DNA of 64,000 nt from a virus (lineage: Duplodnaviria; Heunggongvirae; Uroviricota; Caudoviricetes), in the IMG/VR virus record IMGVR_UViG_2778261268_000002; one strand, 5' to 3'. Each line of letters begins with the position of its first letter. Position 1 is the stretch's first letter. Positions 1-64,000 of this stretch are shown one piece after another. A program made the translations under genes and the position numbers. The notes below the pieces were generated by a model that was not told the origin of the DNA, ran no database searches, and was given only the letters and a program-made list of their open reading frames with translations.

Positions 1-17
1 ACCTCGGTTTACAGGAA
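1..17 (-). other. cix: Cin/Gin/Hin-type inversion crossover site (partial, cut by window edge)
   Basis: Reverse complement TTCCTGTAAACCGAGGT matches the left 17 bp of the gix/cix 26-bp consensus; inverted partner at 3664-3689. Confidence 0.6.
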
Positions 18-1025
18 ACGGTAAACAGGGCTGGTAACGCCGTGCAAAAAAATGGCGATACCTTGTCCGGTGGGCTTACTTTTGAAAATGACTCAATCCT
101 TGCCTGGATTCGAAATACTGACTGGGCGAAGATTGGATTTAAAAATGATGCCGATGGTGACACTGATTCATACATGTGGTTTGAAACAGGCGACAACGGC
201 AATGAATATTTCAAATGGAGAAGCAAACAAAGCACCACAACAAAAGACCTGATGAATCTTAAATGGGATGCTTTGTCTGTTCTTGTTAAAGCCCTTTTCA
301 GCAGTGAAGTAAAAATATCGACAGTCAATGCACTGAGGATATTTAATTCATCTTTTGGTGCCATTTTTCGCCGTTCTGAAGAATGCCTGCATATCATCCC
401 TACACGAGAGAACGAGGGAGAAAATGGTGATATAGGGCCACTACGCCCCTTTACGCTTAATCTTAGAACTGGTCGGATAAGCATGGGGCATGGTCTTGAT
501 GTTACAGGGGATATATTTGCAAACCGTTTTGCAATTAACAGTAGTACCGGCATGTGGATTCATATGCGTGACCAGAATGTTATTTTGGGACGCAATGCGG
601 TATCCACCGATGGTGCGCAGGCATTACTTCGTCAGGACCATGCTGATCGCAAATTTATGATTGGTGGGCTGGGAAATAAGCAATTTGGCATCTACATGAT
701 TAATAACTCAAGGACAGCCAATGGCACCGATGGTCAGGCGTACATGGATAATAACGGGAATTGGCTTTGCGGCTCGCAAGTTATTCCCGGCAACTATGGC
801 AATTTTGATTCCAGATATGTGAAAGATGTTCGACTTGGTTCACAGCAATATTATGGAGTGAACAACTGGCAAACATGGAATTTCCAGTGCCCTTCAGGTC
901 ATGTATTGTCTGGTATTAATGTTCAGGATACAGGTTCCAACTCTGCCGATAATATAGCGGGCGTTTATTACAGACCCGTTCAAAAGTATATAAATGGCAC
1001 CTGGTATAATGTAGCGAGCGTTTAA
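3..1025 (+). CDS. Sv': Alternative tail-fibre variable C-terminal module (5' partial; only joined to the constant part after inversion)
   Basis: ORF open to window start in frame 3; C-terminus ...[12 protein letters not shown] parallels the end of the full tail-fibre gene; reading frame through the crossover site encodes LGLQE like LGLRE in S. Confidence 0.7.
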
Positions 1026-1026
1026 T

Positions 1027-1554
1027 ATGATGCACTTAAAGAACATAAAAGCGGGTAACGCTAAAACACTGGAACAGTATGAGTTAACAAAGAAACACGG
1101 AGTTATCTGGCTTTACTCTGAGGACGGAAAAAACTGGTATGAGGAAGTGAAAAACTTTCAGCCAGACACAATAAAGATTGTTTACGATGCAAATAATATT
1201 ATTGTCGCCATCACTAAAGATGCCTCCACGCTTAACCCTGAAGGTTTTAGCGTCGTTGAGGTTCCCGATATAACAGCCAACCGCCGCGCTGATGATTCAG
1301 GAAAGTGGATGTTTAAGGATGGATCTGTAGTTAAACGGATTTATACGGCAGACGAACAGCAACAACAAGCCGAATCACAAAAGGCCGCATTGCTTTCCGA
1401 AGCTGAATCAGTCATCCAGCCGCTGGAACGCGCTGTCAGGCTGAATATGGCAACAGACGAGGAACGCACACGACTGGAAGCATGGGAACGCTATAGTGTT
1501 CTGGTCAGCCGTGTGGATACGGCAAATCCTGAATGGCCACAAAAGCCTGAATAA
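1027..1554 (+). CDS. U': Tail-fibre assembly chaperone (alternative copy)
   Basis: 175 aa; N-terminus [11 protein letters not shown]...[13 protein letters not shown] and [10 protein letters not shown]...GKWMFKDG are typical of Tfa; paralogue of 1583-2116. Confidence 0.85.
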
Positions 1555-1560
1555 AAATTA

Positions 1561-1580
1561 AGGCCCGCTATCGGGCCTTG
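1561..1580. terminator. Bidirectional stem-loop between convergent tfa genes
   Basis: AGGCCCG-CTAT-CGGGCCTT hairpin flanked by A/T runs. Confidence 0.45.
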
Positions 1581-1582
1581 TC

Positions 1583-2116
1583 TCATTCAGGTTGTTCGGG
1601 AAATGTTACTGGCAGGCTGGAGGTGTCTGTAGATTCGACTTTCTGCGCATAGAGCATCCACTCAGTTAATTTTTGTTTATTCTCGTCGGAAATGATGCCC
1701 AGCCGTAGCTGTGAGTCCCATAGCTGGGTTTTATCCCTGACAAGTTGCAACAGGCTTTGCTTTTCATTCTCTGCCTGCTGCCTCTGTTCCTCCTCGGTAT
1801 AAGTTCGCTTTATCACTACGCCATCTTTGAACATCCATTTACCCGAAATATCAGCCCGGCGATTTGCTGTAATATCAGGAACCTCAACGACGCTTGCGCC
1901 TTCTGGATTAATTGCTGAAACATCCTTTTCAATACAAATAATAACGTTGTTGTGGTCATAGACCATTTTCAACGTATCAGGCTGAAAGTTCTTTTGTTCC
2001 TCATACCAGTTTTTCCCATCCTCTGTATAAAGCCATTTGATGTTAAATTGTTTCGTTAGCTGGTATTGCTCTTTTGTTTTAGGGTTGCCAGCAGTAATAT
2101 TTTTTAAGTGCATCAT
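1583..2116 (-). CDS. U: Tail-fibre assembly chaperone
   Basis: 177 aa, about 60% identical by eye to the plus-strand copy; immediately downstream of the tail-fibre gene. Confidence 0.85.
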
Positions 2117-2118
2117 AA

Positions 2119-5037
2119 TTAAATACTCCCCGCGTTATACCACGTTCCATTAATGCAATACTGAATTGGCCTTGCCTGAGTTGTATCAATTAATTCATCA
2201 CGGTTTCCGTTAACTGAACCCGTAACGACATAACCTGACCTGTCAGACCAGCCGGGACCATTCCATGTCTGAACAGATGACAGACCGCCAAGGCGAATAC
2301 CTGTAATAAACCTTGAGTTACATTCTGCCTGCGTATATGCTCCAACATCTCCCGCAGAGGGTTTGCGGGTTGTGGTGTAAAACTCTGACCAGTCAGCTTC
2401 AAAGCCATAACCATCTCGCGCTGAACGATAATAAATACCGCCGTTCTTATAATTCACACGGAACTGAACCGCCGGGCAACTCCCCGCATTCATATTAAAG
2501 TGAAGAATCAATGTTGACGCTCCACTAATAGTCGCATTATAAACGCCGCTATTTGAGTTCCATCCAACAGCTTTGTCATTTCCAACAGTGCTTCCTGTCT
2601 GCCCTAAAGCAAATGCAGGCTGCTGATTTTTGGTACTGTAGTCACGCCGCCAGCCTGGCGCATAATCTCCACCGTGGTTTATATAAGTAAATTGTGCATT
2701 AGTAGTTCCGCCACCGCTGGAAGTGCTCGGGGTGGTTACACGGATGGTCATGGCACCTTTATTACCCATAACCTCAATAACGCAACCTGCAAGATGAATA
2801 GTTCCACAGCCAGTATCGGTAATAATTTTATTATTGCCGTATGACCATGAACATTTGCACATCCAGTATGGGTGATTGAATGCCCCTTGAGAATCCAGCC
2901 ATTCAATCAATTGTGCCGTCGTCCAGTTTCCTGCACCTGTGCTAATAGCACCATGAAAAGAGCGGCAAGCACCTATTGTTTGCGTAAATTTATCTTTGTT
3001 TGGAATATCTGCGCCGTTCTGTTTTTTCTGCAATGATCCAGCGGCTAATTCTACGGTTTGCTCAAGATTTAAATCTTCCGCCGTTAACTCAATGTTTTTA
3101 GAACCATCAAACGAGACACCGTTAATAGTACGTGCTGTCTGCAATTTAGTCGCTGTAGCCGCATTACCAGAGGTATCCTGATTCCCTTTGGCATTAACGC
3201 CGGGAACGGAATCTTTTGACGTATAGACCTGTGCCCATTCAGACCAGTTGGCAGAATCAGTATCCCGCCGCGAACGGATATGTACGGGCGCATGGGCACC
3301 GCTCGTGCCACTCCAGCCAATGAATAACTCACCTTCGCCAGCAGCGGTGGCACCTTTAAGGTGAAGCACATTGCCATAGGGGGAAGGGTAGCCATTGTTG
3401 TATGCCTCATACAGCTGAATCCCGGATGTTCCCTGTGCATTCGCCTCCAGGGCCGTTACGCGACCGCGCGATACCAGAGTATTGATATTAATGTCACCAG
3501 AACCATCGAACCTGACGCCATTAATGTTTCTGGCTGTTTTCAATTTCGTTGCGGTATCGGCGTTCCCTGTCAGCGCCCCGGTGATCCCGCCGTTGAAAGT
3601 CTGGCGTGCACTCCATGTGTTAGCCGTGCTCAACAGGGGGATCTTTTCACCGCTGGTACCGAGTTCTCTTAAACCAAGGTATTGGATAACGGCCAGTGTG
3701 CTTGTTTTAGCCAGAATATCGCGACCGACTGACGTTAAATCAGTCTGAGCTACCGTATCCTTACCAGTGAAATAAGGCAGTTTGTTTGCACCAGTCGCAA
3801 GGGCAGCGAGAGCGGTTAAAGTTGCATCCAGAGGCTGTTTGCCTGCCAGCGCATTTGTCATTGTTGTCGCAAAGTTCGGGTCATTGCCAAGTGCTGCGGC
3901 AAGCTCATTCAGGGTATCAAGAGCTTCTGGTGATGAACCAACCAATGCGGATATGGCAGCTCTTACATAAGCGGTCGTAGCAATCTGCGTGTTATTCGTA
4001 CCCTGTGCAGCGGTAGGCGCAGTAGGTATTCCCGTTAATGCAGGACTTGCTAAAGGAGCTTTAAGAGCCAGAGCATTGTTGATAGTTGTGCTGAAATTCG
4101 GGTCGTTATTGATCGCTGCAGCTATTTCTTTAAGCGTATCCAGTGTGCCTGGTGCACCGTTGATAAGTGCCGTTATAGCTGCCTTAACAAAGGCTGTATT
4201 TGCGATCTGCGTGCTATTTGTACCTTGCGCTGCCGTCGGCGCGGTTGGCGTTCCTGTCAGACTCGGGCTTTCTATTGGCGCTTTGGTATCAGCAAGATCT
4301 TTTACAGACTTAACGGCTTTAGGGGTAGCCGCCATTGTTTCGCTGTCGCTGTTAGTTTCGCTACTGAGCTGAACTAATCCCTTTTGCGTTGTGCTTGCAT
4401 CCTGCGCCGTATACTTACTTTTCGCCAGATCGTAAGCTTTTTTAACTGCCAGCGAACTTGCAGCAACATCACTTCTGCTACTGGTTACAGAGTCTGAAAT
4501 ATCAATGCCGATCGTGCGGTTGATACGCTCGGATGTATCAATCATCTCCTGGGTAATGGCAGATACACCAGCAGGGATATTCACCGTACAAACAAGCAGC
4601 TCCCCATCTCCTAACTGATATGAATCGGTATAGGTTCTGGCAATAAATTCGGCCGCATAAATATGTGACGCTGTATTAACCTGATAGGTATCTTCTCCAA
4701 GGAGGTATCTTCCCTTCAGCACAATTGCATATTTCTTGCCTGCGCTAAGTGCAAGAGAAATATCCTTACGTTGCTGAATAGTTACCTGGTAGAATTCACC
4801 AATATCCACCGACGCCGCGCCTGCGGTTTTATCACCATCCACTGAGGTGATTAACAGGTTCATCCCACCACTAGGCTTAGGTAAGAAACCGGCATAAAAT
4901 CCCGGGTCAACAATCCCTCTGAATTTTCGGTTTAGCGCGGCTGACAGATATGGTTCGTGGTATTGCACATCAGCCACCAGAGCCAACGACTCGGGTGATG
5001 GGTAAGTAACCGATGTAACAACTGTAACGTCATTCAT
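2119..5037 (-). CDS. S: Tail fibre protein (constant N-terminal part plus currently attached variable part)
   Basis: 973 aa from ATG at 5037 (RBS AAGGA upstream); Ala/Thr/Gly-rich repeats, [13 protein letters not shown] and [13 protein letters not shown] fibre motifs; the track ORF start at 5124 is an upstream in-frame extension. Confidence 0.85.
3664..3689 (+). other. cix: Inversion crossover site inside the tail-fibre gene
   Basis: TTCTCTTAAACCAAGGTATTGGATAA, 13/17 identical to the inverted site at 1-17; lies in codons ...VIQYLGLRE. Confidence 0.6.
3829..4269 (-). repeat. Internal tandem duplication (two units of about 73 codons) within the tail-fibre gene
   Basis: Protein residues about 257-329 and 330-403 repeat: SP(S/A)LTG(T/I)[23 protein letters not shown]...LDTL.E.AAA..NDPNF. 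Confidence 0.6.
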
Positions 5038-30431: not shown

Positions 30432-30716
30432 GATGTGTGCTGGAGGGAGAATAAAAGTCTAAGATGTGCGATAGAGGGAAGTCGCATTGAATTATGTGCT
30501 GTGGAGGGATCGCTGGTATCAAATATGTGTGCTGGAGGGAAAGACAGAGAATTACATGTGCACTGGAGGGAAAAACGGATGGACAGATGTGTGCTGGAGG
30601 GAAAGTCTGAGCAAACTGCGGGGCGTCCCCCTCCAGCGCACATCAAAAACGGGAAATTGGACAAGCCTTCCCGGCAGCACACATTTTTTGAATGCAGCTG
30701 CCCTCCAGCACACACT
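30432..30716. repeat. incA: incA iteron array (about 9 copies, both orientations)
   Basis: Repeats of GATGTGTGCTGGAGGGAAA and variants downstream of repA. Confidence 0.8.
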
Positions 30717-31576
30717 TATTCGGGGAGTTTCAGCTTTGGATTGCGAGAATGGACGATTACAAAACTTTCCCGGCCTTTCTTCTCAATTGAACAGTCGAGA
30801 TAGCCGATTGTTTTAAGCTGTTCTATCGCTTTCTTAATGATACGGTTTTGCTCGCCAACAGCTGACTGCAAAGCCAGGCGCTCACGGATTCGCGCGAACG
30901 ATAGCGGCAACGGGTTCTGCGGAAGGCTTTCGATGAAAGTGTAAATGGCTTGTGCAGCTTCTTTCTTCGGAAGGGCACGCAAGGCGTGGTGTTGCAACAG
31001 AACGCGATAATCAAGCTGGAACAGCTCCCACAGCTTCGAATCAGCCTCCAGCTCTATCAGATCAAGGTCAGCATCAAAACGCCCGACCTTCAGCAGACCA
31101 GTCTGATAGCCGCCTTTAGCATCTTTTCCGCGCTTAAAAGCGATACCCTTGTTACGCAAGCGTCCAAGTGATTCATGAATGGTTAAACGCAGTTTCGCAT
31201 CCAGACGTTTTGAGGGGAAACCACAGGCTTTAGCGAATTCCTGAAACGATAACTGGATGGTGTTTGAGGACAAGCCGTATTTGCTGAACGCGTAGATGAC
31301 ACCGATCCACGTTTTGAAATCAGTATCCATATCGAGTCGAGGACCGGTGATTTTAATATCATCGTAACCCTCGGCTTTAGCTATCTCCAGCTGGGAAAAC
31401 GCTTTGGTGGCATCAATCTCTTTACTTTCTCCTTTGCTCTTTGATGGCTTCGGAACGAATACCCCCAAGCGCATCAACGCTACAGGCTGGACAGTGTTGT
31501 TTGAATTAACTGTTAGTTCTTTTGCCTTACTTTCAATGTCTGCGTAAAGAATATCGGAGATAAATGATTGATTCAT
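30716..31576 (-). CDS. repA: Plasmid replication initiator RepA
   Basis: 286 aa; MNQSFISDILYADIESKAKELTV...; flanked by iteron arrays; recognised as P1-type RepA. Confidence 0.9.
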   Translation of the reverse strand: MNQSFISDILYADIESKAKELTVNSNNTVQPVALMRLGVFVPKPSKSKGESKEIDATKAFSQLEIAKAEGYDDIKITGPRLDMDTDFKTWIGVIYAFSKYGLSSNTIQLSFQEFAKACGFPSKRLDAKLRLTIHESLGRLRNKGIAFKRGKDAKGGYQTGLLKVGRFDADLDLIELEADSKLWELFQLDYRVLLQHHALRALPKKEAAQAIYTFIESLPQNPLPLSFARIRERLALQSAVGEQNRIIKKAIEQLKTIGYLDCSIEKKGRESFVIVHSRNPKLKLPE

Positions 31577-31775: not shown

Positions 31776-31853
31776 GATCAGGGATCTATATGGATCTAAT
31801 TGGGATCTGTATGGACCTAATTATTGGATCTACCCAGTGGATAATGTGGATAA
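31776..31853. other. oriR: Plasmid origin core: GATC cluster and tandem DnaA boxes
   Basis: Five GATC sites within 55 bp (31776-31830) followed by AGTGGATAA and TGTGGATAA DnaA boxes. Confidence 0.7.
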
Positions 31854-31893
31854 GTGAAAAACCGGCCAACATAGCCGGTTGGAAGGAAGGGTA

Positions 31894-32286
31894 TTATTCT
31901 ACGCTTTCGATAAGAAGACCATGTTCATAGCATTTAAGCTCATCGCCTTCATACAGGAACTGGTATCCAATACCACCATATTCAGGCACATTAGGGAATA
32001 ACTCATCACTTACCGAAGAACAAATCACACCAATGCAGCGATCAACGCCTTCTCGTTCTTCAGTGCTGAAAAAATCCTCTTCGGTAAGAACATGAGTGCA
32101 TTGCTCATCAGCATAGGTCGGAAATACATGCTCGATGCAATCCGGGTGTTTTAAACCAAGCTGATTGGCAAGCTCGAAAGCATGACGGTATTGTTCAGAT
32201 CCTGGCTTGCCAACAGTGATTTGCTCAATTTTGTAGATTGAAGTCGCTTTGTTGATAGTTTGCTTTACTGTTACTTTATCAGACAT
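31894..32286 (-). CDS. Hypothetical protein
   Basis: 130 aa, acidic; no recognised motif. Confidence 0.45.
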   Translation of the reverse strand: MSDKVTVKQTINKATSIYKIEQITVGKPGSEQYRHAFELANQLGLKHPDCIEHVFPTYADEQCTHVLTEEDFFSTEEREGVDRCIGVICSSVSDELFPNVPEYGGIGYQFLYEGDELKCYEHGLLIESVE

Positions 32287-32297
32287 AAAAATCCCTT

Positions 32298-32549
32298 TTA
32301 GTTACCGCTGATAGCGCGGTTGTAATCATTAACGTTGCGATTCTTCCTGTTAATCCCCATCAGCATCGTTTCTGTATCAAGGATATACGCTGGCAGATCA
32401 TCAAAATATTCACTGCTAAACTCTGGCATCCTGCACATAAACGCACTTTTGGGGGCAGGGTGGTTAACCTTTGTCGGCGTCGGCGTTAAATTCGCTGATC
32501 GACTCCCGGAGCAACCGCTGAGTGTCAGCAGGAATACGCTGGCGAACAT
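32298..32549 (-). CDS. Proline-rich lipoprotein (outer-membrane spanin-like)
   Basis: Lipobox LTLSGC then TPTPTKVNHPAPK and a single Cys; gene overlaps the 3' end of 32464-32886 in another frame. Confidence 0.5.
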   Translation of the reverse strand: MFASVFLLTLSGCSGSRSANLTPTPTKVNHPAPKSAFMCRMPEFSSEYFDDLPAYILDTETMLMGINRKNRNVNDYNRAISGN

Positions 32550-32886
32550 TACCCGCCGCAACCAGTTGTTTCTGAACTTCAGCTTTTCGTTCCATTTGCC
32601 TGTCAGCATACTTGGCTTGTTCTGATTCATTTTTCACTTCCTGGCTGTGAAAATGTTGCTCTGCTTTGTTCATCGTCTCAATGGTCTGGTTAAGATCCTT
32701 TATTGACTTATCACGTTCCTTAACAGCCTGATCAAGACTGCCAATTTTCTCGATGGCTTGCTTTAGCTGATGACGTTCCCATACAAACCCAGCACCAACA
32801 AGTGCGCAAATCAGAACAAGAACACCAGTAGCAGCAAGTTTCTCCTTCAAAGACAAAGCTGTTTTTAACGTAGAAAAGAATGACAT
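32464..32886 (-). CDS. N-terminally anchored coiled-coil protein (inner-membrane spanin-like)
   Basis: 141 aa from ATG at 32886; TM segment LAATGVLVLICALVGAGFVW then helical periplasmic region. Confidence 0.5.
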   Translation of the reverse strand: MSFFSTLKTALSLKEKLAATGVLVLICALVGAGFVWERHQLKQAIEKIGSLDQAVKERDKSIKDLNQTIETMNKAEQHFHSQEVKNESEQAKYADRQMERKAEVQKQLVAAGNVRQRIPADTQRLLRESISEFNADADKG

Positions 32887-32925
32887 GTCTTCCTCCTGAA
32901 GAAAAATTATCAATGAAGTCCTTTG

Positions 32926-33714
32926 TTACTGTGCCGCTTTGTTTAATTCATCAAGAACAGAATCAGGAACCAAAGCGGCAACTGCGCTGGCTGTGCTGGC
33001 CTTATTTGCTGATGCTTCCGCAAGCGCGGTACCGATAGCATGGTTATAAGCAGTTATGGCTACGTTGGCGCTTTCATTCGCTCGTTCATACTGCTGTTGT
33101 AACGCAGTTGTGGGCGCTGTTGTCTGGTTGAAAACAACCCCAAACTGTTCAGTTGCTACTTTCAGAGATTCAATTTGCTCTTCTGTTAGTGTTGGTGGGG
33201 GAGTGGCAGTGCCGCCGCCTGAACCAGAGCCTGACGAGCTTACTGAGCCAGTGTTAAGGGTCTGGTTAATCTCCCCCATAGCAGCGACTAAACTTGATGT
33301 ATTAAGCGCGTTAACAGCGTCCTCAAGCGATTTAGTAATATTCACATCACCAATGGCAATAGAGATCGGCAGTTCTGAAACTTCTCGCTCATTAGCACGG
33401 CAGTAAACATCCCAACCAATATCGAGTTGAAGCAGCATTGACAGATCTGCATAACCAGCCAACAGGTCCGCGTGCTTAGTTGCCAGTTCTCCAATGTTCG
33501 TTAAGCCGGTTGTAGTTGTTCTGATCGTTGAAACATAACTGGTAATAGTGTCGGGATAGACAATTGTATCCAGAATTAATCCGGTCAATTCTTCTGCAAG
33601 CAGTTTTGCTGTGTTAGCACTGTTTCGTGCCGATGTTATGGCACCAGGTGTTTTCATCCCACCAGCGGCGGCCAATTTTTTATATGCGGATAACTGGTAG
33701 TCTTTTTCCAGCAT
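32926..33714 (-). CDS. Hypothetical Ser/Gly/Thr-rich protein
   Basis: 263 aa from ATG at 33714 (RBS AGGAG); poly-Ser/Gly linker GSVSSSGSGSGGG. Confidence 0.5.
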   Translation of the reverse strand: MLEKDYQLSAYKKLAAAGGMKTPGAITSARNSANTAKLLAEELTGLILDTIVYPDTITSYVSTIRTTTTGLTNIGELATKHADLLAGYADLSMLLQLDIGWDVYCRANEREVSELPISIAIGDVNITKSLEDAVNALNTSSLVAAMGEINQTLNTGSVSSSGSGSGGGTATPPPTLTEEQIESLKVATEQFGVVFNQTTAPTTALQQQYERANESANVAITAYNHAIGTALAEASANKASTASAVAALVPDSVLDELNKAAQ

Positions 33715-33722
33715 GATATCTC

Positions 33723-34007
33723 CTAACTTACCTGAACCAGGCCGTCTCCGGACGCTACGGTAGATCCGCATGAAACAGGGTCACCAACGCATACGATCCC
33801 TTTACCATTGACGGTAAACCATGCCCTGGTTGATATAGCTTGCCCACCGTGCGTACTGTTTCCATCGGTATGCTGTGCATATTGCTTACCATCAACTAAC
33901 ACTTCGACTCCGTTGACTTTAAGTAGTGGTTCACTCTCTACAGGAGGCCTGGATGGGAATCCTCCGTGCCCCGAACAAATGCTGTCTTTTGTTGCAATAC
34001 TTGCCAC
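33723..34007 (-). CDS. PAAR-like / gp5.4-like spike-tip protein
   Basis: 94 aa; pattern VNG..V.VDG...HTDG..THGG....VNGKGIVCVGDPVSCGSTV resembles PAAR-repeat proteins. Confidence 0.4.
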   Translation of the reverse strand: MASIATKDSICSGHGGFPSRPPVESEPLLKVNGVEVLVDGKQYAQHTDGNSTHGGQAISTRAWFTVNGKGIVCVGDPVSCGSTVASGDGLVQVS

Positions 34008-34088
34008 GTCATCACCAATTATTTGCTCTGATTTTCGTTATTTTAACTCAGGTTGTTTGTGGTCTACATGGCGTTTACCTATTATAAA

Positions 34089-34105
34089 ATTGCTCTAATA
34101 AATAT
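34089..34105 (+). promoter_or_regulatory. Repressor (C1-type) operator
   Basis: ATTGCTCTAATAAATAT. Confidence 0.55.
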
Positions 34106-34176
34106 TGTTTTTTATGTCGTATTTTCGGTACCATTCAGCCATCGCCCTTCAATGGGCATTTGTTTGGAGTCGTCAG

Positions 34177-35359: not shown

Positions 35360-37374
35360 GAGAGCTGTGCTATGGATCTGTTTGCAGTGGAATTGAAGCC
35401 GCGAGCATTGCCTGGGAACCGTTGGGTATGCGTCCGGCGTGGTTTGCTGAGATCGAGCCTTTTCCATCTGCCGTTCTTGCGCACCGCTGGCCCCATGTCG
35501 CCAACCTTGGCGACATGACAAAACTCGCCCAAAAAGTCCAGGCAGGAGAAATTGAAGCCCCTGATATGCTCGTCGGGGGTACGCCTTGTCAGGCATTCAG
35601 TATCGCGGGCTTACGTGGTGGGCTTGATGATGAGCGCGGCGCGCTAACTTTGAAGTATGTGGAGCTTGCAAATGCAATTGACGACAAACGGGCTGAGTCC
35701 TTCCTCAAACCAGCAGTTATCGTCTGGGAAAATGTCCCAGGAGTCCTGTCATCAGCAGATAACGCGTTCGGATGTTTCCTTGCCGGATTGGCTGGAGAAG
35801 ATGCGCCATTCGAACCTGGTGATCGACCTGAATCACGAAAAAGTAATACGTTCTGGCGGTGGGATGTCAAAACCGGTTGCCATGCTCCAAAGTGGCCGCA
35901 GTGTGGTTGTATTTATGGACCGCAGCGAAAAGTGGCCTGGAGAATCCTTGATGCCCAATACTTCGGAGTGGCACAACGACGCCGACGCGTGTTTGTTGTC
36001 GCAAGTGCTCGAACAGACCTCGATCCCGCAACGGTACTTTTTGAGTTCGAAGGCGTGCGCCGGAATATTGCGCCGAGCAGAGGCGAGGGGAAGGAAACTA
36101 CCAGATATACTTCAAACATCGCTATCAGAACTTGCGATGATACAAACATAATTGCCATGGCACATGGGCAAGGAGGGGCTGAGATAAAAACCGATAATTC
36201 GGCACCAACTTTGACATGTAACCATGAAGCACCAATTGTATTGCTCGGCGACGGTAGAATGCGCCGTCTTACCCCTGTCGAATGTGAAAGGCTGCAAGGT
36301 TTTCCTGATGGGCATACGTTGATCCCGACGGAAAAGCGTAAAAAAGTTAATTCAGATGAACTGGCATATCTTCGCAATCACTATCCAGATTTAAGCGAAG
36401 AAGAGGTCGCGATGCTTGCAGCTGACGGACCGCGTTACAAAGCGATCGGCAATAGTATGGCAATACCAGTAATGTGCTGGATTGGAGATCGGATTACTAA
36501 GGCCGTATGTCGGCAGAAAGAAGGAAGTGAAACAAAAGAGCGAAAAGTTAAACCAGCGGCAGAATTCGAACGGTCCATATTCAAATGGGCTGGTGGAAAA
36601 TTTGGTGTTCTGGAACAAATCTTTCACTATTTGCCAGAAGGGAAGCGCCTGATTGAACCTTTCGTTGGTGGCGGAGCTGTCTTCATGAATGCCGGATACC
36701 AGGAAAATCTGCTAAATGATGTGAATGCTGACCTGATTAACTTTTACAAGACTCTGCAACGCGAGGCGCATTCACTTATCACTCTGGCACATCGTTTCTT
36801 CCTGGACTACAACACCCAGGAGGGATTCCTGGCAGTACGGAATGCGTTTAACAAACAAGTCTATGATGATTTACATCGCGCAGCGGCGTTTTTGTTCCTG
36901 AACCGACATTGTTTTAATGGATTGACGCGCTACAACCAGGCCGGTGAGTTCAATGTCGGTTATGGGAAGTATAAAACTCCGTATTTCCCATTACAGGAGA
37001 TGGAAGCCTTCCTCGGTGCGGAAGGGCGGTCTGAGTTTGTATGCGGTGATTTTGCAGCAGTGATTGAAGCTGCCGGAGAAGGAGATGTCATCTTTTGCGA
37101 TCCGCCGTATGAACCGCTCCCCAATACAGAGGGGTTTACGAACTATTCCGGTCATGACTTTAAGTTTGAAGAGCAAAAACGCCTGGTGTCTCTGTTGACG
37201 GATGCTCATCGCCGAGGTGCAAAGGTACTCATTACTAACAGTGGCGCGCCAAACGTCAGAGAACTTTATCAGGACAGTGGCTTCAGAGTGGAACCTCTCT
37301 TTGCCAGACGTTCTGTGTCTTGTAAGGGAGACACTCGTGGTGTTGCTCATGACGTTATGGCTATATTGCTCTAA
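35356..37374 (+). CDS. dmt: Bifunctional DNA methyltransferase (N-terminal cytosine-C5, C-terminal Dam-like adenine-N6)
   Basis: GTG start overlapping the hrdC stop; C5 motifs [27 protein letters not shown]; C-terminal WAGGK and DPPY motifs. Confidence 0.8.
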
Positions 37375-63142: not shown

Positions 63143-64000
63143 GTGAAAGCCGTAATTACTCCCTTTGTACAAAAAGAGCTTGGCGTCGCCACATTCAAAG
63201 TGGATCAGGAGGTCAGAAAGCTGGTGGAGGCTGGCCGTAAATTTATTATGGAGCCGGTGCCGCGTGAGTTAATCGAGCACATGGACGACGGCCTCGTTGT
63301 TTCCGAGCAAACTATGGCAACAAATGAGGCGTTGCAGCCGTTTTTTAACAGCGATGAACTGTTTCGCCGTATTGGTGGGATTGACTCGCTGGTGGCGTGG
63401 TTGCGCAGGAAAGAGGGGCAATGCCAGGCCGCAGATCGTAGTTGGTGTGACAACCATATTGTCCACGCTGAACGAGACAATAGCGCGGTGTTGTTGTGCT
63501 GGCATCACGATAACCATTACCGGATGCGTGGTTTTAATGAGCTGAAAGAAACGCTGCATAATAATCGCGTTAACTGGATACTGGATGTCGCCCGTCAGGA
63601 AATGGGGCTTTCAGATGGCCATGATTTAAGTATTCAGGAACTGTGCTGGTGGGCTTTCATGCGCAACATGATGCACCTGATGCCGGAAGAAGTTTGCCGT
63701 ATATCAATAAATAAGATGAAAGCCGCAACGCAGGATAGCGGACCTCTGAAAGAGGCGGATATTCGCCCGTATGACGATCGCGCTACAGCATATGTTCAGA
63801 TGATGGAAGAACGCGCCGCGCCGATGCGTGCAAAAGTATGCCCTGTGGATGTTGACTCCGACCCTGGCATGGCGCATTTCAAAATACCAAAACTGCAATC
63901 GCTAAAATTACCTGAGTACATGGACTTTGTTGCTTCCCGTCCATGCTGTGGGTGTGGAGCGGCGGGAGCTGGCGCTCACATTATGCCTTATATCGTTCGT
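63143..64000 (+). CDS. Cys/His-rich hypothetical protein (3' partial; runs off window)
   Basis: GTG start after RBS AAAGG; uninterrupted ORF to the window end, not in the ORF track because it has no stop; motifs [31 protein letters not shown]. Confidence 0.5.

Follow-up and report, generated by a model that had tools for sequence, protein, structure and literature searches.

The overlapping gene pair at positions 32298 to 32886 (minus strand) is very probably ppfA/mlp, the two-component spanin of a P1-like phage-plasmid. ppfA (32464..32886, minus strand; ORF, P1 annotation, phrog_89) encodes a predicted inner-membrane spanin (i-spanin) of 140 aa, and mlp (32298..32630, minus strand; ORF, phrog_30284) encodes a predicted outer-membrane spanin (o-spanin), a 110-aa lipoprotein precursor that would mature to 71 aa; position 32886 is the A of the ppfA ATG, and 32298 is the final base of the mlp stop codon. 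Judged by nucleotide identity, the window, by which we mean the whole 64-kb stretch of DNA analyzed, is a P1-like phage-plasmid and a variant of P1. In a megablast search of a phage collection, positions 31800 to 34100 matched P1, P7, RCS47, SJ46, and other Punavirus records at 95–98% DNA identity (95.6–98.3% for the P1 records). The genes under this match are annotated as upfA, mlp, ppfA, upfB, and upfC, and several of the matching phage records name ppfA/mlp 'Rz-like spanin' or 'Rz / Rz1'. In the P1 reference (NC_005856), mlp (63354..63686) and ppfA (63520..63942) both run leftward and lie between upfA and upfB, adjoining oriR and repA.

The P1 ppfA/mlp spanin pair is already known. SpaninDB lists it as 'P1, NC_005856.1, ovl' (Kongari et al., 2018; PMC6139136, supplementary files 2 and 6), and Bednarek et al. 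(2022; PMC9025707) cite Summer et al. (2007) for the prediction of the P1 spanins; thus, its detection in the window is a correct rediscovery. The Mlp of the window has exactly the sequence that SpaninDB gives for P1 gp063, and the PpfA of the window differs from gp064 at 2 of 140 residues (V35A, K63M). In Bednarek et al. (2022) the labels are swapped, ppfA being called the o-spanin and mlp the i-spanin, the reverse of what is indicated by the sequences and by SpaninDB. The overlapped inner/outer spanin architecture that a sequence-only reading had proposed for this locus agrees with SpaninDB, with Bednarek et al. (2022), and with all of the sequence-level properties tested. The spanin interpretation is therefore supported as a prediction, short of proof, that matches the published P1 annotation. 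The pair entered the spanin literature in 2007 and SpaninDB in 2018, and the result has little importance beyond correct annotation.

Sequence features of PpfA and Mlp

PpfA has a single hydrophobic segment (residues 17–35; codons at 32782..32838, minus strand, LAATGVLVLICALVGAGFV), at which the 19-residue Kyte–Doolittle mean reaches its maximum of 2.48, and which is helical in an AlphaFold2 model. The only Cys of the protein lies inside this segment, leaving none in the periplasmic part. From its sequence, PpfA would be a type II inner-membrane protein with one N-terminal transmembrane domain. The AlphaFold2 model, built on 21 family members (mean pLDDT 69.6), has a helix at residues 13–110, a break at 111–119, and a second helix at 120–139, and the hydrophobic residues between positions 38 and 80 recur with a periodicity of 3.45–3.5 residues, above 5000 of 5000 shuffles. 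The predicted periplasmic domain is thus mostly helical, coiled-coil-prone, and interrupted by a linker, as in i-spanins, and with one hydrophobic segment, a long helix, and heptad periodicity the earlier description of an N-terminally anchored coiled-coil protein is a fair one. PpfA matched the PHROGs model phrog_89, whose annotation is 'Rz-like spanin' (E 7.1e-25; residues 21–139), and a sequence search against the PDB gave no meaningful match. SpaninDB describes P1 gp064 as an overlapped i-spanin of 140 aa, with 104 periplasmic residues, no periplasmic Cys, and 'one in TMD' (PMC6139136). A strong Shine–Dalgarno sequence (AGGAGG; 32892..32897, minus strand), kept in all loci, lies 5 nt 5' of the ppfA ATG.

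Mlp carries an SPase II signal ending in the lipobox L37-S-G-C40 (codons at 32511..32522, minus strand), the LSGC lipobox that had been seen from the letters. C40 is the predicted lipidated residue, and the residue at +2 is Ser41 and not Asp, so that no inner-membrane retention signal is predicted. The protein had been described as having a single Cys. This holds for the non-lipidated, periplasmic Cys and fails for the precursor, which has both C40 and C66; the mature form would accordingly have one lipidated Cys and one periplasmic Cys. Likewise, 'proline-rich' applies only moderately, as Pro accounts for 6 of the 71 mature residues, all within the first 41.

Cys66 (codon at 32433..32435, minus strand) is the sole periplasmic Cys of the pair, and is a candidate for an intermolecular disulfide. 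It is kept in all homologues, lies in the motif FMCRMPE(F/Y)..EYFDDLPAY, and aligns with a Cys of P2 LysC. At least one periplasmic Cys is present in 507 of 528 spanin pairs, and the commonest combination reported by Kongari et al. (2018) is none in the i-spanin and two in the o-spanin (PMC6139136). Mlp matched phrog_30284 over its entire length (residues 1–110; E 6.5e-79), a family also annotated as 'Rz-like spanin', and, more weakly, phrog_456 (E 2.7e-5). When PpfA, Mlp, UpfA, and UpfB were scanned against Pfam, coiled-coil noise below threshold and one weak match, to LPAM_1, were all that appeared. Counted from the first ATG, the signal peptide of Mlp is 39 aa, which is unusually long. The SpaninDB entry for gp063 (overlapped o-spanin, 110 aa, mature form 71 aa, one periplasmic Cys) flags this 39-aa signal as 'too long', with LipoP cleavage at 39 and no PROSITE match (PMC6139136).

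Overlapping reading frames and their conservation

The lipoprotein gene had been placed in another frame at the 3' end of the coiled-coil gene, and this is the arrangement found. mlp starts inside ppfA in the +1 frame, shares with it a dual-coding overlap of 167 nt (32464..32630, minus strand; PpfA residues 86–140 and Mlp residues 1–56), and runs 166 nt beyond the ppfA stop, as in the overlapped class of spanin genes defined by Summer et al. (2007) and Kongari et al. (2018). An SD-like AGGAAGTG is present 5' of the mlp ATG.

PpfA was found in 80 IMG/VR loci, all P1-like and 96–100% identical; these were too similar to be informative on conservation, and a large protein search was needed to reach more distant relatives. 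That search recovered a second PpfA clade, 58–63% identical, on contigs of about 90–97 kb from Cronobacter, Salmonella, and Klebsiella, from which four divergent loci (L085–L088) were used as the conservation sample. All four share the gene order hrdC-uhr | upfC(PAAR)-upfB-ppfA-...-repA-parA-parB, and three of them also have dmt on the upstream side of hrdC. Whether the lipoprotein frame is conserved in relatives was the point on which the earlier proposal could have failed, and in each of the four loci the +1-frame mlp ORF is open at the same offset (108–109 aa, 164-nt overlap). All retain a lipobox, which reads LSAC, LNGC, or LNAC (two of these Mlp relatives have Asn at position −2), and the second Cys and the C-terminal motif around it are present in 4/4. 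Selection was assessed by Nei–Gojobori counts over 53 codons analyzed downstream of the ppfA stop: in this non-overlapped part, the mlp frame has a pN/pS of 0.17, whereas the two alternative frames give 1.67 and 1.79. Inside the overlap, which is the most conserved part of PpfA, it is the ppfA frame that is constrained (dN/dS 0.14–0.25); the mlp frame, here encoding the signal peptide and linker, varies freely yet stays open. The mlp frame, open and with its lipobox in all four loci, is more than chance, and by these measures of codon substitution it is under purifying selection.

An unexpressed chance ORF inside and beyond ppfA would account for several features of the lipoprotein frame: automated gene calls gave only a 45–52 aa tail of mlp in three of the four divergent loci and nothing in L087, a search for Mlp homologues returned a tiny set of 28 proteins, mostly fragments, and no curated family in Pfam or NCBIfam was matched above threshold. 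The small number of homologues is explained by overlapped frames being rarely called. Several observations speak against a chance ORF: in four loci at about 60% PpfA identity the reading frame is intact, together with its start region, its lipobox, the second Cys, and the C-terminal motif; the low pN/pS is confined to the mlp frame; Mlp is similar to P2 LysC; and an SD-like sequence precedes the ATG. We regard this explanation as hardly credible, and as effectively refuted by the intact frame in the four divergent loci together with its pN/pS. The conserved frame supports annotating an o-spanin in divergent P1-like contigs, in which gene callers miss or shorten it.

Operon context and late transcription

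The pair was described as lying next to the replicon and away from any lysis cassette, and both statements stand. repA (30716..31576, minus strand), an ORF beginning MNQSFISDILYADIESK, corresponds to P1 repA by annotation, and oriR is flanked by repA and upfA. A tblastn search of the entire 64-kb window with P1 Lyz, LydA, LydB, LydC, LydD, and LydE gave no match, in line with the remark that no holin or endolysin is nearby. On the P1 map, lyz-lydD-lydE (20.0–20.9 kb) and lydC-lydA-lydB (30.4–31.5 kb) are more than 30 kb from the spanin genes (63.4–63.9 kb), and Bednarek et al. (2022; PMC9025707) describe the operon of the predicted P1 spanins as having no linkage to the remaining lysis genes. 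P1 is a textbook case of a phage whose lysis genes are distributed among several late transcription units.

The ppfA-mlp unit has upfC (33723..34007, minus strand; PAAR-like) and upfB (32926..33771, minus strand) as its 5' genes, and upfA (31894..32286, minus strand; phrog_1453, of unknown function) as its 3' gene, each placed by ORF and P1 annotation. UpfC matched the NCBIfam T6SS PAAR domain (4.5e-9, below the cut-off). Just after upfA and before oriR is a terminator-like hairpin followed by a T-run (31860..31880, minus strand), which is likely the end of a upfC-upfB-ppfA-mlp-upfA transcription unit. For a spanin pair this is an unusual setting, in which a PAAR-like spike-tip gene belongs to the same late operon and a probable terminator stands immediately before a plasmid origin.

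Timing was taken from RNA-seq of P1vir, and not of the element in the window, as log fold change at 10 and then 30 min (PMC8201110 Table S1). All five genes of the unit rise between the two times (upfC, 4.9 to 10.6; upfB, 4.1 to 11.1; ppfA, 5.6 to 11.2; mlp, 4.1 to 10.5; upfA, 5.2 to 11.2), as do lyz (6.1 to 11.3), lydA (5.2 to 11.8), lydB (3.4 to 11.0), S (4.0 to 11.8), and gene 23 (5.4 to 12.1); the divergent early neighbors uhr, hrdC, and dmt are already at 8.6–9.4 at 10 min. In P1vir, the whole upfC-upfA unit has late kinetics like those of lyz and lydA, despite its physical separation from them.

A strict search for Lpa late promoters (AAGTNAYTT-N4-TANNNT, at most one mismatch) found no site near the operon. 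A relaxed scan combined with the relatives gave a candidate Lpa-type late promoter, AAAGGACTT-CATT-GATAAT (32906..32924, minus strand), consisting of a degenerate −22 box, a 4-nt spacer, and a −10 element, 8 nt 5' of the ppfA Shine–Dalgarno sequence. At the equivalent position, L085 and L087 have a perfect −22 box, AAGTGACTT-N4-GAGAAT, and L086 and L088 have ATATGACCT and AAATGACCT, respectively, each followed by N4-GAAAAT. The box upstream of ppfA is the sole perfect AAGTNACTT in the 10.4-kb L085 locus; the 10.4-kb L087 locus has two perfect boxes, the second of which follows parB at a distance of about 220 nt, a place occupied in P1 by gene 23 with its late promoter. The position and conservation of these sites suggest a late promoter for ppfA-mlp-upfA that is degenerate in P1 and absent from the annotation of NC_005856, in which only predicted sigma-70 promoters, inside upfB, are given. 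Such a degenerate, Lpa-dependent promoter may contribute to late transcription, and is a possible explanation for the co-timing of the unlinked spanin and lysis genes. A transcript starting from it would have a very short leader, and it would leave the late kinetics of upfC and upfB unexplained. No convincing promoter for these two genes was found in the upstream sequence. Two sites were rejected: a sigma-70-like site for upfC (34046..34018), which ends 11 nt before the GTG start, and a TATAAT for upfC/upfB (34081..34086), which abuts the C1 operator Odmt and has neither a −35 nor a −22 box.

The position beside repA and oriR could instead reflect a role in the plasmid-prophage state, with PpfA and Mlp forming an envelope complex, or Mlp acting as a lipoprotein, with a part in exclusion, in serum resistance, or in the fitness of the host, in the manner of lambda Bor or of the Cor and TraT lipoproteins. 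The distance from lyz and lydA-E, the presence of only predicted sigma-70 promoters upstream in the P1 record, and the non-essentiality of the pair for plaques in CRISPRi experiments would all fit such a role. The P1vir kinetics, however, are late and neither early nor constitutive, the operon also contains a virion-type gene that is PAAR-like, there is a candidate late promoter, and the PHROG, P2 LysC, and architecture matches all indicate spanins. We consider a prophage-state role very unlikely.

Proposed lysis model and comparison with known spanins

For a ppfA/mlp spanin, the mode of action can be modeled on the lambda Rz/Rz1 paradigm (Berry, 2008, 2012; Rajaure, 2015; all as cited in PMC9025707). 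Mlp would be lipidated at C40 and Lol-sorted to the inner leaflet of the outer membrane, where it would probably homodimerize through C66; Mlp and PpfA would bind via their C-terminal parts, giving complexes that span the periplasm through the peptidoglycan mesh and are restrained by it until the murein is degraded. Degradation by the SAR-endolysin Lyz, timed by LydA/LydB, would free the PpfA–Mlp complexes to move and collapse, and this collapse would fuse the inner and outer membranes, removing the last barrier to phage release. Counted against the spanin reading are the lack of a periplasmic Cys in PpfA, the long Mlp signal and the Asn at lipobox position −2 in two relatives, the replicon-side location, the absence of any match above a curated Pfam or NCBIfam spanin threshold, the non-significant comparison of PpfA with P2 LysB, and the CRISPRi scores of the two genes, which, like the RNA-seq, come from P1vir and not from the element in the window.

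In CRISPRi knock-down of P1vir, the efficiency of plating (EOP) was 0.24 and 0.19 for mlp and 1.3 and 1.2 for ppfA, and both genes were scored as non-essential for plaques; for comparison, EOP was 0.05 for lyz and 5e-4 and 0.15 (two columns) for lambda Rz, and lambda R was scored as only intermediate. Knock-down of late, high-copy templates is leaky and can be incomplete. These results bear on whether PpfA/Mlp, although a true spanin in its ancestry, is redundant or not needed for P1-type lysis, the outer membrane being broken mainly by other means, such as shear, a different phage factor, or the unusually complex Lyz/LydA-E system. Such dispensability would be in keeping with a drop in EOP of only 4–5-fold for mlp, with the report that spanins are non-essential in shaken laboratory cultures (PMC9025707), and with a decayed copy found in two further loci (L083/L084), in which ppfA is truncated and mlp has an internal double frameshift. 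On the other side, the knock-down may have been incomplete, as the intermediate score of lambda R illustrates, and the decayed copy lies in loci in which none of the P1 neighbors upfB, upfC, uhr, hrdC, and dmt was called. Moreover, the mlp frame is under strong purifying selection, and both genes are full length in the divergent clade and across 77 P1-like phage-plasmids, among whose 21 most conserved genes mlp and ppfA are counted (PMC9603915). On balance, a dispensable spanin is unlikely. Less likely still is a further departure, in which P1-type release is independent of PpfA/Mlp and the pair has another or an additional role linked to its unusual setting, perhaps in envelope remodeling other than lysis; in a more modest version of this reading, the unannotated, degenerate Lpa promoter upstream of ppfA would drive the operon.

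The interpretation of ppfA/mlp as a spanin pair can be set against the characterized systems. Like the predicted P1 pair, lambda Rz/Rz1, the experimentally characterized paradigm, combines a type II coiled-coil inner-membrane protein with a small outer-membrane lipoprotein that contains Pro and is encoded in the +1 frame, and each pair has one or more periplasmic Cys available for homodimer disulfides (predicted in P1). The Pfam models of lambda Rz and Rz1 (PF03245 and PF06085) gave no match to PpfA or Mlp even at E values up to 1, and with nothing above noise in Pfam, the P1 pair is placed outside the lambda Rz/Rz1 family. The Rz1 gene lies entirely within Rz, but mlp continues past the end of ppfA; Rz has two periplasmic Cys, whereas PpfA has none. 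Mature lambda Rz1 is 40 aa with 25% Pro; mature Mlp, at 71 aa and 8.5% Pro, is the longer and less Pro-rich protein. The lambda pair sits in the S-R-Rz cassette, whereas the P1 pair is outside any lysis cassette. The spanin genes of T4 are also not adjacent to endolysin or holin genes. In T4 PseT.3/PseT.2, as in P1, the i-spanin has no periplasmic Cys, so that all disulfide capacity resides in the o-spanin; however, the T4 genes are separate, unlike the overlapped ppfA/mlp, and the o-spanin of T4 requires both of its two periplasmic Cys (PMC6139136), where Mlp has one.

Among the closest systems outside P1 is P2 lysB/lysC, which is likewise overlapped and similar in size to ppfA/mlp (141 aa and 96 aa; 146-nt overlap). 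Mlp and P2 LysC are 37% identical over 68 aa (pairwise E 1e-7), in an alignment that covers both the stretch rich in Pro and the Cys motif PK..C.MP; this match suggests a distant relatedness of the o-spanins only. The P2 LysB and LysC models (TIGR03495 and NF038368) were the top NCBIfam matches of PpfA and Mlp, both sub-threshold (19.4 bits vs. a cut-off of 92.75, and 14.7 bits vs. a cut-off of 27, respectively). A profile comparison of the PpfA family with P2 LysB (hhalign) was not significant (probability 0.8%), and homology of the i-spanins to P2 is consequently not claimed. The P2 genes follow Y, K, and lysA within the lysis cassette, a linkage that the P1 pair lacks. With P1 gp064/gp063, finally, the comparison is with the genes themselves: the Shine–Dalgarno sequence, the overlap length, and the neighbors upfA, upfB, upfC, and repA are the same, and the P1 pair and that of the window show no difference of substance.

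Gene order and candidate promoter of the late unit

The transcription unit upfC-upfB-ppfA-mlp-upfA begins with upfC (window 33723..34007, minus strand), a PAAR-like gene that overlaps upfB (window 32926..33771, minus strand) by 49 nt. UpfC has a sub-threshold match (4.5e-9) to the NCBIfam T6SS PAAR domain, and the note on upfC in the P1 record cites T4 gp5.4; upfC is likely a virion spike-tip gene. One late operon thus combines a likely spike-tip gene with the predicted spanin genes.

Directly upstream of ppfA is a candidate Lpa-type late promoter (window 32906..32924, minus strand), which in both the window and P1 has the degenerate form AAAGGACTT-CATT-GATAAT, and for which the annotation of the P1 reference (NC_005856) has no entry. 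The counterparts upstream of ppfA in two divergent P1-like relatives (L085 4964..4982 and L087 4964..4982) have a perfect -22 box, AAGTGACTT-N4-GAGAAT. A promoter for upfC or upfB was also sought, and none was identified. A perfect minus-strand TATAAT, oriented toward upfC, adjoins the C1 operator Odmt (Op68; window 34081..34107, -/+; plus-strand reading attgctctaataaatatt), and an operator-like ttattaga(a/g)c in the same arrangement as Odmt/TATAAT is kept in the divergent loci.

Annotation and decay of the predicted spanin pair

In the region downstream of ppfA in the four divergent P1-like loci (L085-L088), the automated calls of the public assemblies comprise only a 45–52 aa tail of the o-spanin frame, or nothing. 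Thus, a search for Mlp homologues yields few full-length proteins, because gene calls truncate or miss the o-spanin frame.

A decayed copy of ppfA/mlp is present in two E. coli contigs (L083 4200..5100, and L084). Its ppfA is truncated and contains stops; its mlp has kept an open frame, but a double frameshift within the gene has replaced the conserved Cys motif. The decayed pair adjoins a Rep3-type rep gene and parAB; upstream, CaiF/GrlA-family genes replace upfB, upfC, uhr, hrdC, and dmt.

Comparison with P1 and its literature

The window begins inside the invertible C segment (tail-fibre S/U region). Its first stretch (window 1..3687) gives a forward match to the related phages RCS47 and P7 and a reverse match to the P1 reference; therefore, the C segment is oriented opposite to that of NC_005856. 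Inside the dmt region, the window and the P1 reference differ in length (window 36077..36262; ~185 nt here vs. ~430 nt in P1), and the local blastn alignment is interrupted at that point. In the Introduction of a 2022 paper on P1 lysis (PMC9025707), ppfA is labelled the o-spanin and mlp the i-spanin, whereas the sequences and SpaninDB show that these labels are swapped, with PpfA as the membrane-anchored i-spanin and Mlp as the lipoprotein o-spanin.
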